Shown: positions 17,004-24,360 of the stretch, one piece after another
How the letters are laid out: every line of letters starts with the position of its first letter
Numbering within the stretch: position 1 is the stretch's first letter
Translations under genes and position numbers: made by a program
Notes under the pieces: model-generated
What the model was told of the DNA's origin: nothing
The model's input: the letters and a program-made list of their open reading frames with translations, nothing else
The model's database searches: none
DNA from: Planctomycetota bacterium
Lineage (GTDB): Bacteria > Planctomycetota > GCA-002687715 > DRQF01
NCBI GenBank assembly: GCA_047639315.1
Contig: JBLINQ010000005.1
Location: forward strand, 337 to 64,336
DNA length: 64,000 nucleotides
Direction: 5' to 3'

Positions 17004-17984
17004 TCAGCGACCGCGTGTCATCCTCAGAATCTCGGCGTCCGTGGCAGATTTGGTGGATTTGAGCTCAGCTAAAAACCTCGATCCGTCCTGATAGTAGCCC
17101 GCTGTCCGCAAGATCCCGGGGGCTCGCCGGCGCCAATAGTCGTTAAAGATCGACATGAATGCTTCGCGCGTATATTTGGCAATCATCGAAGCCAAGCCGA
17201 TCGCTGGGAAGCGATCGTCGCCTTTGACGTGAAAAGAGATCTCGACGGGGCCGGTATCGGGTTCTAAGAGATAATGGCCATTGGCCGAAGTCTCTTCTAA
17301 TATCTCGATGGGTACGAAGGGGAAGGCGCCTACAAGCTTTGGCTCGTAGTGGCTCCGCCCACCCAGTTTATCCACCTGGATTTTACGGGCTTCTGCTGGC
17401 TCCAAGACCTCTTCAATGAGCTCAGCGACTTGGGTGAAAAGAGAATCGTGCTTGTTTTCGGATAGGCCCCAGGACTGGTTGAGTGCGACTTCGTCGGTGA
17501 CGCGAAGTCCTAAACCTGTGATGACACCACCAGATAGGGCCAACCCCTTTTCAACCTCTTCCCAGGCCTCGGTCAATTCATCGGCGGAAGCCGCTATGGG
17601 CAGCGACATGTCTAAGTCTTGATACCATGGAAGTTGGTGAAGTTGATTGTTCGCGGCCCAGTGCGAATCGAGTTCCATCCATTCGAGGAGCGTGGCGGGC
17701 GGCGCGCCATAAATCGACGCATGAATACCCAAGACGGCGGCTTCGAGATGGGCAAAACCCGACTTGCGGGCAAGAAGTTGTTTGGAATCGCCGATCTTCA
17801 CGATGCGAGCAGGACGAATCGGCAAGCGTAATTTCGCACCGGTGAGCTCAAAATCAGCTCTTCCCAGTACCAGTGGGCCTAAGAGTGGCCCATATCCGGC
17901 TTCATCGATTCCATGAACAAATACAGGTGAATTCACGACTTCCACTTTCTTTGTCGATAAGAACAAAAGAAAGGCCGGAGGCAA
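17004..17984 (-). CDS. divergent RNase HII-family protein with a large internal insertion
   Basis: GIDEAGYGPLLGPLV, IGDSKQL and LASMIAKYTREAF correspond to the DEAGRGP / DSK / ASI.AK..RD motifs of RNase HII. At 326 aa it is longer than the ~200 aa typical size. The TTG start at 17984 is uncertain (a GTG lies at 17945). Confidence 0.5.
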   Translation of the reverse strand: MPPAFLLFLSTKKVEVVNSPVFVHGIDEAGYGPLLGPLVLGRADFELTGAKLRLPIRPARIVKIGDSKQLLARKSGFAHLEAAVLGIHASIYGAPPATLLEWMELDSHWAANNQLHQLPWYQDLDMSLPIAASADELTEAWEEVEKGLALSGGVITGLGLRVTDEVALNQSWGLSENKHDSLFTQVAELIEEVLEPAEARKIQVDKLGGRSHYEPKLVGAFPFVPIEILEETSANGHYLLEPDTGPVEISFHVKGDDRFPAIGLASMIAKYTREAFMSIFNDYWRRRAPGILRTAGYYQDGSRFLAELKSTKSATDAEILRMTRGR

Positions 17985-17992
17985 GCAATACC

Positions 17993-18382
17993 ATGATTCA
18001 GGTACTCATTTCTTTACGCGACCCCATTCTCAGCGACATTGTGTCGACTGCTTTCAAGCAGTTCCCATCGGTCACCTCGCACCGATTGCCCGAAAACAGG
18101 GTTATGGACACGATCGCCAACAGTGAATACGACGCCATCGTCGTCGATTTGATGAAGGGCGACGAGATGCGGCAAGGACTCTTAGTCCAAGAGATTCGCG
18201 AGAGCGGCAATAAGATCGAGATCATCGGCTTAGTCGATCGAAACTTGAAGGACCGCTTCAATCGCTACAAGCTCGACAACAGCCTGTTTAGCGTCTTCCC
18301 GTTGCCGGTTGACCCGTTTGCTCTGGCCAAGAACATTGTACGCTTGGAAACGCGGTTGAAGAAAACAAGTACGCGCCGCTAA
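17993..18382 (+). CDS. stand-alone receiver (REC)-like domain protein, probably atypical
   Basis: 129 aa from the ATG at 17993. It has a CheY-like alternating pattern with the candidate acceptor Asp in IVVDLM, but the N-terminal acidic pair and conserved Lys are not obvious. Confidence 0.45.
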   Translation: MIQVLISLRDPILSDIVSTAFKQFPSVTSHRLPENRVMDTIANSEYDAIVVDLMKGDEMRQGLLVQEIRESGNKIEIIGLVDRNLKDRFNRYKLDNSLFSVFPLPVDPFALAKNIVRLETRLKKTSTRR

Positions 18383-18403: not shown

Positions 18404-21400
18404 TTAGAGGTGACGTCGTACTTTCGATTTTGATTCAACAGACTCATCATCGGTGTAGCCACCCAGGTCTCGGATGATTTGCTCGTAGCCTTCTAAGTCG
18501 AGCATCCCCAGACTTTGCACAGTCCGAACCGCGATCATCTGCTCGCTCCAACTCGAAGGGCGTTCGCCGGCTTCGAGCAAGATACCGTAAACGTGCTCAA
18601 TCGGATCCACTCCCTCCGGCAGGAGCTCGTCTAAGTTTGCCAGATGTTTGCGCGCCACCTTGTGACCATGATCGAGTGAAGCCGCCAAGATACGCAACAT
18701 GCTTTCATTGGTCTCTGGGTCAGCAATGAATTCCCAGTATTTCTCGACTTTGGCGAGCGTCTTCTTCGACAGGCGGAACCGCTGCCAGCGAGTCTCTTCT
18801 TTAGGCAAGCGATGGATGACATCGCGGAGTTCGGCAATGGCGCTCAAGATAGAGTAGCTTCCTAAGTGATCACAGGCGAATGCTGTGGCCACGACGCGCA
18901 TGGCCTGCCCTTCCCTACCGACGAGATTCTCATTGCGGGCAACAATGTCGTCCGCGATCTGGTGACCAGCCTCGGCTTGGTCGCGCAAGAATCGTGACAA
19001 GACTCGAATCTGCTGTTCGCGCTTGGTCTTGATCTCTCTGAAGTTTTGCCAGTCTCGTTCCGATGCGTCGAGACGGCGCAAGTCTTCAACCAAGAGGTCT
19101 TCGGGGCGGATGGAGTCTTCCGTGATGCCAGGAATGGCGATACCGAGATACTCAACGTCAAAAAGCGCACGCAGACGCACTGTTTCCATCACCACGGGTC
19201 GCCGCATGCGATGGATCTTTCGACGAGCCACTTCAAACCCAGAACGTCCGGCGCTGACTTTGAGAGGCCGATCGTTCGGATTGAGAACATCCTTCACGAT
19301 GAGGACGATGCGCTTAATCAGAAGGCGAACGCCACAAAGGACAAGCCAAACCAAGATCAGCGGGAAGGCAAACACGCGGCCTCGAGCGAGGTACTTGCGA
19401 TAGAAACGATATGGATTGATCGTCCGCTTCGACTTAGCCAACTCGTGCATGGGGAACGTGCCGAAGATATCGCGAATGAGATTCTCACGATCTTCGAGGA
19501 GCAAATTGGCGACATCATCGCCAAAGCGCGACCGAATCGCGTTGTCTCTCTTCTCTTCCTTGGTCAAGAAGTTAAGAGCATTAAATTCGGTGGTGCGATA
19601 AACAAGCGTACCGCCCGAGCTGTCGGTCGTTTGCGACTCATCGGTCGTCAACACTTCATTGCGGCGACGAGCCAATGAGATGCGCTCACGACGGGCGAGC
19701 CAAGCGTCAAAGATGCGGCGATCTTCGGCGTCAGCGGCGTTGTACTCGTCGACAGGAATGCAATGTTGATTGTATTCGATGATGAGTCGGGCCGTGTGCT
19801 GCGCCACACTATGAGTGATGAAGTTAAACCACACGCGTGGCCCGGAGATGCCGCCCTTATCACGAGCAATGTCGAGACGATCGAGTCTCTTGAAACGCTT
19901 GGCATCAAACTGAAGGCGATTGCGGCGAATGTTCTCAAGGGTCAGATTTCCCACCAAGATGTTCGCGATCTTGGTGTCGTTCTTATGGAAATAAGCACCG
20001 TCGATGAAATCGCGATAGTAGAGCATCATGGCATCACACATCGACCATGGCAGTGGTGATGCTTCATCATTGATGTTGTCTTGCTTCTGACAAACGGCGA
20101 AGAGTGCACTGCGGGCGACCTCGCGCTCGGCTACGGCTTCTTCGGGAACAAGAAGCTTGTGCTCGGGCATGAGGACGCGCTCGACCAAGTAAGACACGTC
20201 TCGGTCGCCGTGGACTTCTTTGGCAGTCTCAGTTAACGCGAAGAACTGGGCCTCTGAAACGCGATCGAAGAAATCGACGGCTTGACCAGCAATGCGTCGG
20301 AGCCAGAGTCCGAGCGCAAGAGGAATAAAGCAGACGACACCTAAGACGATGATCGGAAACTTCAAGGCATCTCGAAGTGAGTCGACACCTTTGATGAAAG
20401 CCGGCACCTGCGTGAGCCAGGCCATGCCCAAGATAACGCTGATCACAACGACAAAGATGACCAATCGCTTTGCCGGTCTAATGGTCGCCTTGACCAGTTG
20501 AATGCCAACTCGATCAAGGAACTGCGCCCCAGTAATAGTGCCGTAAAGATCGGCGAACCAATGAATACCACGAGCAACCCAGGCCAGGAGATCTCCAGAG
20601 AGTCGTCCTAAGCGGGCTGTGGTCCACAGAGGATCAGGTGCTCCGCTTGGTCCAAGGAGGAATCTCGAAAAGGCGAAATGACGCAGGAACGGCAAGCGGA
20701 AAAAACTCAGGGACGCAGTCAGTTGACGCGCCACATCGACGCCAACGATTTCGGCGACTTGATTGTCATCAAGCCCTCTCAGGTTATCGACCACACTGTC
20801 AACATCGAGATCGCGAATTCGTTCTTCGCCGTGCTTCCTCTTGACCGAAGCTGCTGCCACACCACCGTCATGGCACGAGAACTCGGCTTCGATTAAGCCC
20901 ATGCGCCATTCAGCCCCAACGATTTGCGCTTCAACTGGCAGGCCCTTCAGCACATTCGATGTCCTACCGGCGATCCACGAGTCAATGTTGCGAGCTCGGC
21001 TCAGAAGAGTGAGGTTTGACTCAGCTTGCTCATCCTCCGTAGCGAAGACGATATTCTGATTGAGGAACCACGAGTTGCGCTCGACCAAACGATCGGCGGC
21101 ACGGGCAAGGAATAAGAAGAGCCGCGACAAGCGAATGATTGGGCGCAACACGCGCAACACTCTTGCAACCCGAACCAAGCGAGCCGTTCGAATGAAGCGT
21201 AACTTGTCGACTGCCATCAGTCCTTGCAGTAATCCAAAAGGCAACGACGGCAGAAACTCAGTGATAAAATTTCGACGGAAATAAGCCAGGCGCGATGGAC
21301 TGAGAAGGAGGCGGATCATGAAGTCCCAGAGAAGAATGAGGCAGATGAGGGTATCGACCCAGACGGTCCAGCCGATCGTCGACCAAATGCCCTTGCCGAT

Positions 21401-22666
21401 TTCTTCCCAGTCTTCTTCCCCTTGGTCTTCGCTTTGTTGCTCGACCACTTCTGCCTGTGCAACTTCCTCTTCGGTTATTGATGGTCCGCTAAAGTGATCG
21501 ATGACGATGAGTAGCATCACCACCATAATCAACCAGAAGATCATTTTCTCCCAGCGTTTCACTTGCCGCGGGCCGAAGGTGCGATCGAGGCGTAGCGACA
21601 AAATCCGATCGGCAATCACAGAACCCATACGACGCACCATGCGTCTTAGCTTTCGATCCGCGCGCTTGCCAGCCTTCGCATTTTCTTCGCCGACCTCATC
21701 GGCTGGCAAAGAGCGAATGCGCTTGGCGACGGCCTTCATGCCGGTGACGAAGTTCTTGCCGTCAGTCTCCAAGCACTGAAGGACTTTGACTTGGCCGATG
21801 GTGCGATCTTCATAGGAATCCATCCGCGCTTGATCGATCTCGCCGGTGACCCAGCGTGACGCTTCAACTGCGATATCGAGTCCGTCTTTGTCCTCGGTCG
21901 TCTTCATGAAGAGGACAAAGAGGTCACGGAGCCGTTCACTTTCACACCGGAGCTCTTGCGCGACCGTTGACAAAGATTCCCGGGCGCCTTCGTGGGCGTT
22001 TTCAATTCCTAATTCAAGATGGAAGGAAGCGCTCGATAGGGATCGTGATAGCCGGAAGACGCGATAGGCGTCTGACAACTCACACTCTTGGATCTGCTTG
22101 GCCGCTTCGAGTTGGTGCTCGGCTTGCGCTTTGAGCACTTCGGCCCGCAACGACATGATTTCGATTTTGGCCGCTCTGATTGTTTCGTTGTCATACAAGA
22201 TGTCTTCGGCGGCGCCGGTATCGACTTCTTCTTCACCATCAAGACCGTTGTCAATGTCGCGCAATTCCTGAATGAGGAATGGCGTTTCGTCGCGCGCTTC
22301 TTTTTCTTCTAACCCGCGAGTCAAACGAAGAAGGAGACGAGCAACGGCTCGCAGCACGGCGCAACGCCGGGCAGTCTCGGCATCATCGGCGTCAGTATCG
22401 CGAAAGAACTCCCGCGCCGATGACTCGAGTTCTTCCAAGCCGAGGGCGAGCTGATCGAGGCAGGCGCCGTCTTCTCCCTTGGGGTGAAAGCCCTCTAAGC
22501 CCTTGGACGCCAGGAGTGCCTTTTCCCAAAGGACAACTGCATCTGACAGCTGGCAACCAACGCGCGCGACATTGCGTAGCTCAACCACAGCCCCATGCAT
22601 GACGGAGAACGTCTCGCGCATCTTGGCTTCCGAATCTCGGAATTCTTGTGGGTTGTTTTGATCCAT
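18404..22666 (-). CDS. 1420-aa multidomain membrane protein containing a voltage-sensor-like (S1-S4) module
   Basis: Uninterrupted ORF. Residues ~371-525 comprise 4 TM helices, the last being RTARLVRVARVLRVLRPIIRLSR with Arg at every third position. Three further TM helices lie at ~734-755, ~769-790 and ~1085-1110. Confidence 0.8.
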   Translation of the reverse strand: MDQNNPQEFRDSEAKMRETFSVMHGAVVELRNVARVGCQLSDAVVLWEKALLASKGLEGFHPKGEDGACLDQLALGLEELESSAREFFRDTDADDAETARRCAVLRAVARLLLRLTRGLEEKEARDETPFLIQELRDIDNGLDGEEEVDTGAAEDILYDNETIRAAKIEIMSLRAEVLKAQAEHQLEAAKQIQECELSDAYRVFRLSRSLSSASFHLELGIENAHEGARESLSTVAQELRCESERLRDLFVLFMKTTEDKDGLDIAVEASRWVTGEIDQARMDSYEDRTIGQVKVLQCLETDGKNFVTGMKAVAKRIRSLPADEVGEENAKAGKRADRKLRRMVRRMGSVIADRILSLRLDRTFGPRQVKRWEKMIFWLIMVVMLLIVIDHFSGPSITEEEVAQAEVVEQQSEDQGEEDWEEIGKGIWSTIGWTVWVDTLICLILLWDFMIRLLLSPSRLAYFRRNFITEFLPSLPFGLLQGLMAVDKLRFIRTARLVRVARVLRVLRPIIRLSRLFLFLARAADRLVERNSWFLNQNIVFATEDEQAESNLTLLSRARNIDSWIAGRTSNVLKGLPVEAQIVGAEWRMGLIEAEFSCHDGGVAAASVKRKHGEERIRDLDVDSVVDNLRGLDDNQVAEIVGVDVARQLTASLSFFRLPFLRHFAFSRFLLGPSGAPDPLWTTARLGRLSGDLLAWVARGIHWFADLYGTITGAQFLDRVGIQLVKATIRPAKRLVIFVVVISVILGMAWLTQVPAFIKGVDSLRDALKFPIIVLGVVCFIPLALGLWLRRIAGQAVDFFDRVSEAQFFALTETAKEVHGDRDVSYLVERVLMPEHKLLVPEEAVAEREVARSALFAVCQKQDNINDEASPLPWSMCDAMMLYYRDFIDGAYFHKNDTKIANILVGNLTLENIRRNRLQFDAKRFKRLDRLDIARDKGGISGPRVWFNFITHSVAQHTARLIIEYNQHCIPVDEYNAADAEDRRIFDAWLARRERISLARRRNEVLTTDESQTTDSSGGTLVYRTTEFNALNFLTKEEKRDNAIRSRFGDDVANLLLEDRENLIRDIFGTFPMHELAKSKRTINPYRFYRKYLARGRVFAFPLILVWLVLCGVRLLIKRIVLIVKDVLNPNDRPLKVSAGRSGFEVARRKIHRMRRPVVMETVRLRALFDVEYLGIAIPGITEDSIRPEDLLVEDLRRLDASERDWQNFREIKTKREQQIRVLSRFLRDQAEAGHQIADDIVARNENLVGREGQAMRVVATAFACDHLGSYSILSAIAELRDVIHRLPKEETRWQRFRLSKKTLAKVEKYWEFIADPETNESMLRILAASLDHGHKVARKHLANLDELLPEGVDPIEHVYGILLEAGERPSSWSEQMIAVRTVQSLGMLDLEGYEQIIRDLGGYTDDESVESKSKVRRHL

Positions 22667-22669
22667 GGT

Positions 22670-24199
22670 TTAGAGCTTTGGCAAGACGTTGGCCGCAATC
22701 AAAAGAACCGTCAAGGAAATCAACAAAATACCGATGAAGTTAATGATCAGGCCGGCCCGAATCATCGATTTGATCGAAATTCGCCCCGAAGCAAAAACAA
22801 TAGCGTTGGGCGGTGTGGCCACAGGCAGCATGAAAGCGCAGGATGCCGACAAAGTCGCGGCGAATGCCAGGAGGCGGCCAAGAGTATCGGTACCAACCTG
22901 CGAGACGATCGGCACCACGACTGAAGTGGTAGCTGTGTTTGATGCAAATTCGGTCATAAACGACATGACCGTTGAAATGACCGGGACAAGAACCGGCGCC
23001 CCCGCACTCTCCAACGACGATAGTGAATTGCCGATCCACGCCGAGAGGCTGAGAATATCGCCTGCCGACGCGCCAATCTGAAATGACTTGGCGATGGCGA
23101 AGCCGCCGCCGAGCAGAAGCAGCATGCCCCAGGGCAGAGACTTGGCCGTATCCCAATCAGCCAGGACAGCCTTGTCAGGACCGGGCCGCCAGATACAGAG
23201 AAGAACGACTCCCAAGATGGCGGCCGCCGAATCTCCAACCCCAGTCTTAGCGCTGGCCACCAGCCAATCTGCGCCCAGATATTCCAGGCCGGAGACCCAA
23301 CCTGGTAGATAAAAAGAACCGAGGGTGAGGTCGCGACGGGTGACCCACAAGAGGACGACCAGCCCAAAGACAGCGGCAACCGCTTTCTCTTGTGTTGATA
23401 GGCCCCCGAGTTTCTTGAGCCGATCGCGCACGAGGTCTCGATCGCCGAAACAGATCTCTCCCGAGGCCTTGCTAAACTCGCGCCGCAACACCAACCAGAC
23501 AATAACCACGAAAATGCAGACAAGCGGAACGCAGATGATCATCCATTCGGCGAATGATGGTTGCCCTGCTCCCTCAAATTCTCGTTGAAAAATGCCGTTG
23601 GGGGCGGTACCGATGGGCGTGCCCATCCCGCCGATATTGGCAGCGTAGGCCACCGAAAGAAGGAGTGCCGTCGTAAACCGCACTCTGGTTTCGTCGTTGA
23701 CGCCACTGCCGCTGAGCTCTTCGCAGAGGGCAATGCAGATCGGCAACATCATCAAGGTTGTCGCGGTGTTGGAAATCCACATTGAGAGGACAGCGACGGC
23801 AACCATGATGCCGAGCATGGTGCGAGCCGGCTGAGTTCCAAATAGCACAATCAGATTGAGAGCGATCCGACGGTGCAATTTCCACTTCTCAATGGTAAGT
23901 GCCATGAAGAAGCCACCGAAGAACAGAAAAGTCAGATCATTGGCGTAGGCACCACTCACGGCATCCGACGGCATGATCCCAAGAAGCGGGAAAAGCAAGA
24001 TCGGCAGAATTGAAGTCACTGGGATCGGCAGAACTTCTGAGACCCAGAGCACAGCCATCAAGGCCGTGACCCCTAGAGCCCGAAATCCTCGCGGATCAAG
24101 ATTCTCTGGGCATTCCACCACCTGCGGCAAGATGAGCAGCGTCAGTCCGAGGCACCACACAAGAACCTTGATCGCTCGATCCCTTGAGATTTTCATCAT
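22670..24199 (-). CDS. DASS/SLC13-family divalent anion:Na+ symporter
   Basis: 509 aa, multi-pass, with duplicated SNTATT motifs (SNTATTLMMLPI and SNTATTSVVVPI). Its stop lies 3 nt before the start of the 1420-aa gene. Confidence 0.8.
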   Translation of the reverse strand: MMKISRDRAIKVLVWCLGLTLLILPQVVECPENLDPRGFRALGVTALMAVLWVSEVLPIPVTSILPILLFPLLGIMPSDAVSGAYANDLTFLFFGGFFMALTIEKWKLHRRIALNLIVLFGTQPARTMLGIMVAVAVLSMWISNTATTLMMLPICIALCEELSGSGVNDETRVRFTTALLLSVAYAANIGGMGTPIGTAPNGIFQREFEGAGQPSFAEWMIICVPLVCIFVVIVWLVLRREFSKASGEICFGDRDLVRDRLKKLGGLSTQEKAVAAVFGLVVLLWVTRRDLTLGSFYLPGWVSGLEYLGADWLVASAKTGVGDSAAAILGVVLLCIWRPGPDKAVLADWDTAKSLPWGMLLLLGGGFAIAKSFQIGASAGDILSLSAWIGNSLSSLESAGAPVLVPVISTVMSFMTEFASNTATTSVVVPIVSQVGTDTLGRLLAFAATLSASCAFMLPVATPPNAIVFASGRISIKSMIRAGLIINFIGILLISLTVLLIAANVLPKL

Positions 24200-24251: not shown

Positions 24252-24323
24252 GCCAGTGTAGCTCAATGGTAGAGTACAGCTTTCGTAAAGCTGGGGTTGA
24301 GGGTTCGATTCCCTCCACTGGCT
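24252..24323 (+). tRNA. tRNA-Thr (anticodon CGT)
   Basis: The cloverleaf folds by hand. Acceptor GCCAGTG/CACTGGC, anticodon stem CAGCT/AGCTG with loop TTCGTAA, T-arm GAGGG-TTCGATT-CCCTC. No CCA is encoded. Confidence 0.9.
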
Positions 24324-24330
24324 CTGATCG

Positions 24331-24360
24331 GCCTTCACCTAACGGTGAGGGCTTTTTTTT
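24331..24360 (+). terminator. intrinsic terminator after tRNA-Thr
   Basis: GCCTTCACC-TAAC-GGTGAGGGC hairpin (one G-U pair) followed by T8. Confidence 0.8.

Follow-up and report, generated by a model that had tools for sequence, protein, structure and literature searches.

Can a voltage sensor serve a bacterial protein that has no conventional ion-conducting pore? This question is raised by an open reading frame (ORF) of 1420 aa with an ATG start, called at 18404..22666 on the minus strand of a 64,000-nt stretch of the Planctomycetota bacterium contig JBLINQ010000005.1 (the whole stretch analysed, hereafter the window, in whose coordinates all positions are given). Its product, here termed the giant protein, is identical to an NCBI "hypothetical protein" entry from a Planctomycetota metagenome-assembled genome (MAG). 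The original prediction described it as a canonical voltage-sensor module embedded in a very large scaffold and possibly coupled in function to the DASS transporter encoded next to it. To our knowledge, pore-less voltage-sensor proteins are few (the voltage-sensing phosphatases, Hv1, TMEM266 and the sensor of SLC9C1) and all eukaryotic, and in bacteria we know the sensor module solely from within channels. We consider it somewhat probable that the giant protein is a voltage-driven conformational switch with a non-conductive output, in which a Kv-like sensor is set into a non-channel scaffold.

The giant protein is not a one-off. A word-indexed search retrieved 14 relatives, and, when repeated with a diverse full-length alignment, it yielded these 14 again and no others; a search with the most conserved 220-residue block returned zero. 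At a threshold of E ≤ 1e-3, the exhaustive profile search matched 1211 representatives, of which 359 also passed E ≤ 1e-30; as each represents a cluster at 50% identity, the family comprises no fewer than 359 clusters. The top 150 profile matches all have the architecture described below and exceed 717 bits, and nearly all of them span the full profile in proteins of ~1200–1500 residues. A scan of GTDB species genomes, for which a closer family alignment (A2) and not the most diverse one was used, located 66 loci with a giant gene. Nearly all belong to Planctomycetota, among them the cultured species Tautonia sociabilis and Candidatus Uabimicrobium, and a few are MAGs labelled Verrucomicrobiales, Gammaproteobacteria or Myxococcota. 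The family is thus large, mostly planctomycetal and composed of inner-membrane proteins of ~1200–1500 residues. It is also uncharacterised, as had been supposed for this protein: a search of the literature did not find a description of it, and its members are named "hypothetical protein" or "ion transporter" at NCBI. The latter name is borne, for example, by homologues from Candidatus Uabimicrobium sp. HlEnr_7 (L028, 5834–10108) and from a Pirellulales MAG (P0160).

Profile comparisons identify residues ~366–530 as a true S1–S4 sensor homologue, related to the sensors of voltage-gated K+ channels. In the giant protein alone, the Pfam family Ion_trans matches residues 372–523 with positions 4–125 of its 241-position profile (E = 1.1e-4, 21.9 bits), and phmmer yields weak matches to the isolated sensor of KvAP. 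The Ion_trans match recurs in 13 of the 14 first-found relatives (best E = 5.9e-8). It is restricted to profile positions ~2–125 in each of seven diverse members, three of which lie above the gathering score. When the family profile was compared with the sequences of the PDB, it matched the S1–S4 region of Kv3.1 (E = 3.6e-7) and the KvAP sensor (E = 9.2e-6), with zero matches outside S1–S4. Together with the gating charges and counter-charges described below, these matches bear out, at the level of sequence, the proposed canonical sensor.

The charges were counted in 147 aligned near-full-length members from the exhaustive profile search, with a median pairwise identity of 33%. The S1 helix (residues 366–392; 21491..21571, minus strand, as are all features of the giant gene), placed by hydropathy and a sensor-only AlphaFold model, has a fully hydrophobic core. 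S2 (residues 433–455; 21302..21370), which aligns to S2 of KvAP, carries D438, L445, D448, F449 and R452. Position 438 is D in 145 members and E in two, and position 448 is acidic throughout (87 E, 60 D); the plug position 445 between them is F in 103 and L in 44, and position 452 is K or R in 145. We take the D438-x6-F445-x2-E/D448 spacing to be that of E283, F290 and E293 in Shaker, the gating-charge transfer centre. S3 (residues 459–485; 21212..21292) carries E470, P473 and P476 and aligns to S3 of both Kv3.1 and KvAP; position 470 is acidic in 135 members (92%; 106 D, 29 E) and P476 is invariant. The counter-charges named in the original prediction (D438 and D448 in S2, E470 in S3) are therefore all conserved. 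The giant protein has Leu at position 445, unlike the Phe-bearing majority of its relatives, which could shift its voltage dependence.

S4 (residues 490–530; 21077..21199; helix 163–196 of the sensor-only model) is Arg-rich and runs on as a helix into the cytoplasm. Arginines occupy every third position at 490, 493, 496, 499, 502, 505 and 508, followed by R512 and R515, so that the periodicity is as first described and the count, given earlier as six from 493, is corrected to seven from 490. Even in this Arg-rich protein, a run of six arginines at every third position arose in just 20 of 20000 shuffles; as such runs are rare and the pattern is kept in ~30%-identical relatives, the periodicity is not a product of chance. 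At least five of the seven S4 positions are basic in 109 members and all seven in 50. Of the post-S4 residues, R515 and D525 are each kept in 145 members. The sensor therefore retains the full charge apparatus: 5–7 arginines in S4, a Phe/Leu plug between two acids in S2, and one acid in S3.

The distribution of loop charges across the 147 members (K+R-rich pre-S1, S2–S3 and post-S4 segments; acidic, K+R-poor S1–S2 and S3–S4 loops) shows the predicted topology to be the standard one, with four transmembrane (TM) helices, the N-terminus inside and the end of S4 in the cytoplasm. The segment directly before S1 is a conserved basic amphipathic helix found in both AlphaFold models (residues 336–364; 21575..21661; helix 2–30 of the models), with a predicted local distance difference test (pLDDT) score of 90–95 in the sensor-only model. 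It is K+R-rich (mean 5.8) and hence placed on the cytoplasmic side. The hydropathy profile has segments at ~369–399 (S1), 426–461 (S2), 503–521 (S4 tail), 724–761 (TM5), 763–795 (TM6) and 1092–1128, and the S3 helix is visible in both predicted models; taken together, hydropathy and models put the helices at the sites given in the original prediction. The outward-facing S1–S2 loop (residues 393–431; 21374..21490) was delimited by alignment and has low pLDDT in the models. Across the family this loop has a median length of four residues and a maximum of 44; in the giant protein it consists of a lineage-specific, extremely acidic insertion of 39 residues (EEEVAQAEVVEQQSEDQGEEDWEE).

What follows the sensor is not a conventional pore. 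The distance from the end of S4 to TM5 is 195–243 residues (median 203), and TM5 and TM6 form a hairpin with a short loop (residues 735–791; 20294..20464), assigned from hydropathy and alignment. This hairpin had been foreseen with a spacing of 13 residues; its connector measures ~15–18 residues in the giant protein and has a family median of 15, which is too short for a re-entrant P-loop. Filter motifs of K+ channels (TVGYG-like) and bacterial Nav channels (T-x-E-x-W) occur in 0–3 of the 147 members, and the Ion_trans matches end at about position 125 of 241 in every member tested. The conventional S5–P-loop–S6 pore is absent, in agreement with the original prediction, and ~200 cytoplasmic residues stand in its place after S4. 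Conservation throughout the family reinforces this reading of a sensor without a pore.

An oligomer might nevertheless form an unconventional voltage-gated channel or transporter, in which TM5–TM6 hairpins, perhaps with helix 7 (see below), line a pathway without a P-loop that is gated by the sensor via the long cytoplasmic linker domain. Every characterised bacterial protein known to us with an S1–S4 sensor of this type gates a pore. In the family itself, TM6 shows good conservation, including that of small residues and a Trp (G776, C779, G786, W788), and leads into a conserved amphipathic helix, and no block is more conserved than the one that precedes TM5 (mean majority-residue frequency 0.61). 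Against such a pathway, TM6 has no position that is polar in the majority of members, TM5 is conserved in hydrophobicity alone, filter motifs are missing, and the connector of median 15 residues leaves no place for a re-entrant loop. Furthermore, ~200 residues replace the short S4–S5 linker through which the sensor acts on the gate in known channels, and neither PDB sequence nor Foldseek comparisons revealed any likeness to channel pores. The "ion transporter" label of relatives, which would also favour a channel, overstates the case because it evidently derives from the partial Ion_trans match and the pore domain is absent. We therefore regard an unconventional pore as unlikely.

Another conceivable route for ions is the sensor itself, which could conduct an Hv1-like proton current or an omega (gating-pore) current, with the remainder of the protein being regulatory. 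In channels, a full S4 arginine set together with an intact plug and both acids seals the gating pore, and the 5–7 arginines, Phe/Leu plug and two S2 acids of the family correspond to this sealed configuration. Isolated sensors are nonetheless able to conduct: published work describes the isolated Shaker sensor as a voltage-gated cation channel (PMC5092046) and Hv1 as a sensor-only proton channel, the hallmarks of which are a mid-S1 Asp acting as the selectivity filter and the S4 motif RxWRxxR (PMC4429351, PMC4621752). Neither hallmark is a feature of the giant family, where the S1 core lacks an acidic residue in 146 of the 147 members and RxWRxxR occurs in just two. A conducting sensor is accordingly considered very improbable. 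The phosphatase reading fares no better: a phosphatase domain was not matched by Pfam in the giant protein or its 14 first-found relatives, and the CX5R(S/T) motif occurs in 10 of 147 members at non-conserved places. With the defining motifs and the phosphatase domain absent, the giant protein fits neither Hv1 nor the voltage-sensing phosphatases.

Outside the sensor, conservation is concentrated in five hot spots, and the invariant residues of the family are chiefly Arg, Asp/Asn, Gly, Pro and aromatics. The first is the post-S4 helix (R515, R522, D525, R526 and NSWLLNQNIVFF), which belongs to a highly conserved segment delimited by alignment (residues 516–545; 21032..21121; R515, F519, R522, D525, R526 and LVERNSWLLNQNIVFF) and is a candidate coupling element. 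It is followed by cytoplasmic helical domain 1 (residues 546–734; 20465..21031; from model and alignment), the final ~35 residues of which (WFADLYGTITGAQFLDRVG...RPAKRL) are strongly conserved. The second hot spot is the pre-TM5 block mentioned above (D706, G709, T712, D718, P731, R734), and the third comprises TM6 and the amphipathic helix behind it (G776, C779, G786, W788, A793, A806). Cytoplasmic helical domain 2 (residues 796–1094; 19385..20281; from alignment and model) contains the fourth, at residues 876–1094, with 26 columns conserved at 90% or more. Nowhere else in the protein are invariant residues packed as densely as in this domain (D889, G890, D897, N907, G942, P943, W946, F947, N966, F1028, R1060, R1065, N1084 and Y1089).

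Domain 2 ends at hydrophobic helix 7 (residues 1095–1120; 19307..19384), a hydropathy peak that is part of a single 44-residue helix in the model and has basic flanks on both sides. A further TM helix had been proposed here; the hydrophobic helix is indeed present, and due to the charged and polar residues that frequently interrupt it in relatives, it possibly does not span the membrane. The fifth hot spot, RKIxRMRxP...LRAxFDxEYLG, lies beyond helix 7 in the C-terminal helical domain (residues 1130–1420; 18407..19279; model pLDDT 80–92). At the other end of the protein, residues 1–335 (21662..22666) form an N-terminal region, putatively helical or coiled-coil according to the original prediction, that is variable in the family alignment and presumably cytoplasmic. 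Its length in relatives ranges from 93 to 502 aa, its mean majority-residue frequency is 0.21, and none of its columns reaches 90%.

The arrangement of these elements suggests how the proposed switch might operate. Membrane potential would move S4, and this motion would pass through the post-S4 helix (R515...R522..D525-R526...NSWLLNQNIVFF) to the cytoplasmic helical domain of ~200 residues. The relay may be expected because S4 runs unbroken into this nearly invariant basic/acidic helix. From there it would reach the hairpin of TM5 and TM6 and, on the cytoplasmic side, the two large helical domains that are conserved in the family. The output would be cytoplasmic, such as the regulation of a bound partner or of an intrinsic activity that is still unrecognised, and would not consist in the passage of ions through a P-loop pore. 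The symporter gene upstream (DASS) is a clade-specific neighbour, probably co-transcribed in this genome, and not the effector of the family.

Several points weigh against a voltage-driven switch. The Ion_trans score of the giant protein alone lies below the Pfam gathering cut-off (25), and the plug residue is Leu instead of Phe. The sensor-only model (pLDDT 77.7, predicted template-modelling score 0.67) gave zero Foldseek matches to the PDB at E ≤ 0.001. In this structural comparison, suggested by the original prediction, the top superpositions were Kv4.2, KCNQ1/2/4 and NavAb, all insignificant (template-modelling scores 0.33–0.38, E ≥ 5), so that the assignment of the sensor rests on sequence evidence. 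Moreover, the ~900 non-sensor residues lack a match in Pfam, NCBIfam, PADLOC, PDB sequences and Foldseek. Pfam and NCBIfam scans of the whole protein returned the partial Ion_trans match and nothing more, and the PADLOC defence models matched zero families. The AlphaFold model of residues 335–1420 (1086 residues; all-helical, pLDDT 70) had a best Foldseek match to the PDB of E = 0.32. The comparison of the remaining domains with the PDB, also suggested at the outset, thus ended with zero significant matches by sequence profile or structure. Weak scattered Foldseek matches to terpene/prenyl synthases, TRPC5 and ABC transporters were dismissed as noise (template-modelling scores below 0.2). Scans for Walker A, HExxH, DDxxD, GGDEF and histidine-kinase H-box motifs found none conserved among the 147 members. 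The non-sensor part thus matches nothing and has no recognisable catalytic motif that would define the output of the giant protein. Finally, voltage sensing and its coupling to the other domains are both what we infer from sequence, and an oligomer could form the unconventional TM5/TM6 pore considered above.

Some of these points would equally suit a degenerate sensor, that is, an S1–S4 relic without voltage dependence, kept to anchor a cytoplasmic scaffold in the membrane or to help it assemble. The absence of a recognisable output domain, the lack of fold confirmation by Foldseek and the Leu plug of the giant protein are consistent with such a relic, as are 15 of the 147 members with just one to three S4 charges. 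The pattern of conservation argues otherwise. Across lineages of ~30% identity, the functional charges, and not hydrophobicity alone, are the most conserved positions of the sensor, and the majority-residue frequency of S2, S3, S4 and the post-S4 segment (0.52–0.55) is on par with that of the best cytosolic blocks, which argues against a decayed relic. A mere anchor, in turn, would not keep 5–7 arginines within the membrane plus three counter-charges. We therefore judge a degenerate sensor to be distinctly improbable and retain the voltage-driven switch as the preferred reading.

The genomic neighbourhood was the basis for assigning a partner to the giant protein. The gene directly upstream on the same strand (22670..24199, minus strand; 509 codons) encodes a DASS/SLC13-type anion symporter (Na_sulph_symp, 9.9e-65; TIGR00785, 1.6e-77). 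The junction reads CTC TAA ACC ATG, confirming the gap of 3 nt from the stop codon of the symporter gene to the start codon of the giant gene. Co-transcription of the two genes in this genome is plausible and says nothing about the function of the family. Under the coupling first proposed, the giant protein would be a co-expressed, voltage-dependent regulator that tunes transport by the symporter to membrane potential. Apart from the tight spacing, this idea draws support from the retention of the adjacency in six related loci (giant proteins 47–73% and DASS proteins 58–77% identical to those of the window). However, a DASS gene is found directly upstream of a giant gene solely in one syntenic clade of Planctomycetota (the window, L001/L009, L007, L010, L014 and L016). 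There, the whole block is conserved in the order sigma54 regulator, AnmK, tRNA-Thr(CGT), DASS gene, giant gene, small convergent ORF, RNase HII, HAD and amine oxidase, so that synteny accounts for the adjacency.

The upstream border of this block is the tRNA-Thr(CGT) gene (24252..24324, plus strand), identified in the window and in the syntenic loci, every one of which contains it. Two loci with the same block and giant proteins 49% (L004) and 57% (L017) identical to that of the window have the arrangement AnmK, tRNA-Thr and giant gene without the DASS gene. The symporter gene thus comes and goes precisely in the interval from the tRNA gene to the giant gene, which suggests that it was inserted or deleted beside the tRNA. 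In ~60 other loci, DASS is absent within 7 kb and the neighbours are unrelated. Unbiased clustering of neighbouring ORFs likewise found the top gene in at most eight of the 66 loci, with each such set following one sub-clade. Conservation of the gene pair, proposed as a check, is therefore not observed across the family. The DASS pairing reflects the gain or loss of a gene beside a tRNA within one clade; it does not constitute a functional module for the family as a whole. Regulation of the symporter is largely refuted at the family level, and we give it hardly any credence as the function of the giant protein.

A few further observations concern the surroundings of the giant genes. Between AnmK and the DASS gene, the tRNA-Thr(CGT) gene is followed by a terminator-like hairpin (24330–24353). 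The small convergent ORF (17873–18382, plus strand), with a probable start near 17990 and a product of ~130 aa, is found in seven loci of the clade; it has no Pfam match and by eye resembles a divergent CheY-like receiver domain. Faint EF-hand matches lie near the giant genes of two distant family members (L002, 12059–12958; L003, 2851–4887). They were rejected as partners, as they do not recur in the neighbour clustering and are probably fortuitous, the genomes of Planctomycetota being rich in EF-hand proteins. Long antisense ORFs inside the giant genes (L009–L074) form clusters across 57 loci and reach up to 2166 aa in L032. These clusters were discarded as genes since they overlap a conserved coding frame, and they were taken to be by-products of codon bias.

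The giant protein can be compared with several known systems. With the S1–S4 half of Kv channels (KvAP, Kv1–Kv4; PF00520) it shares the acid-x6-Phe-x2-acid pattern of S2, the S3 acid, the every-third S4 arginines and the N-in topology. Unlike these channels, it lacks the S4–S5 linker, S5, P-loop and S6, and beyond its S4 there come instead ~200 residues in the cytoplasm and novel helical domains of ~900 residues. The closest functional analogy is to Ci-VSP and TPTE, in which a pore-less sensor likewise connects S4 through a conserved basic linker to a cytoplasmic effector; the giant protein differs from them in having no PTEN-like phosphatase, in its extra TM hairpin, in being ~3x larger and in its bacterial origin. 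Hv1 (HVCN1) is similar in having a sensor without a separate pore domain, whereas the giant protein lacks the mid-S1 Asp and RxWRxxR, has 5–7 S4 arginines as opposed to three, and carries ~1200 extra residues. TMEM266 (HVRP1) is an orphan sensor-only protein, pore-less, small and eukaryotic, with a disordered C-terminus; it resembles the giant protein as a pore-less sensor without known output, and differs from it in size and in being eukaryotic, and a sequence relation between the two was not seen outside the sensor. Lastly, the sperm Na+/H+ exchanger SLC9C1 combines a sensor and a transporter in one polypeptide. It is a precedent for a sensor that controls a secondary transporter, whereas the DASS symporter is encoded by a separate gene, the adjacency of which is not conserved. 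Tentatively, we propose that the giant family may be the first family of voltage-sensing proteins other than channels to be recognised in prokaryotes, in which a Kv-type sensor would drive a new effector of ~900 residues in cytoplasm and membrane.

In practical terms, the analysis corrects the "ion transporter" annotation and removes a tempting but unsupported link to DASS transport. If the proposed switch is true, direct voltage control of a non-conductive process would occur in bacteria too and be widespread among Planctomycetota, as with the voltage-sensing phosphatases of eukaryotes. Several hundred clusters have kept the charge-transfer apparatus intact, with the pore replaced by a large novel helical assembly. 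The family would thereby offer a clonable handle on how bacteria read membrane potential other than via ion flux and on what voltage sensors can couple to, and its cultured carriers (Tautonia sociabilis and Candidatus Uabimicrobium) make genetics conceivable. Furthermore, it bears on the evolutionary origin of the modularity of sensors and effectors.

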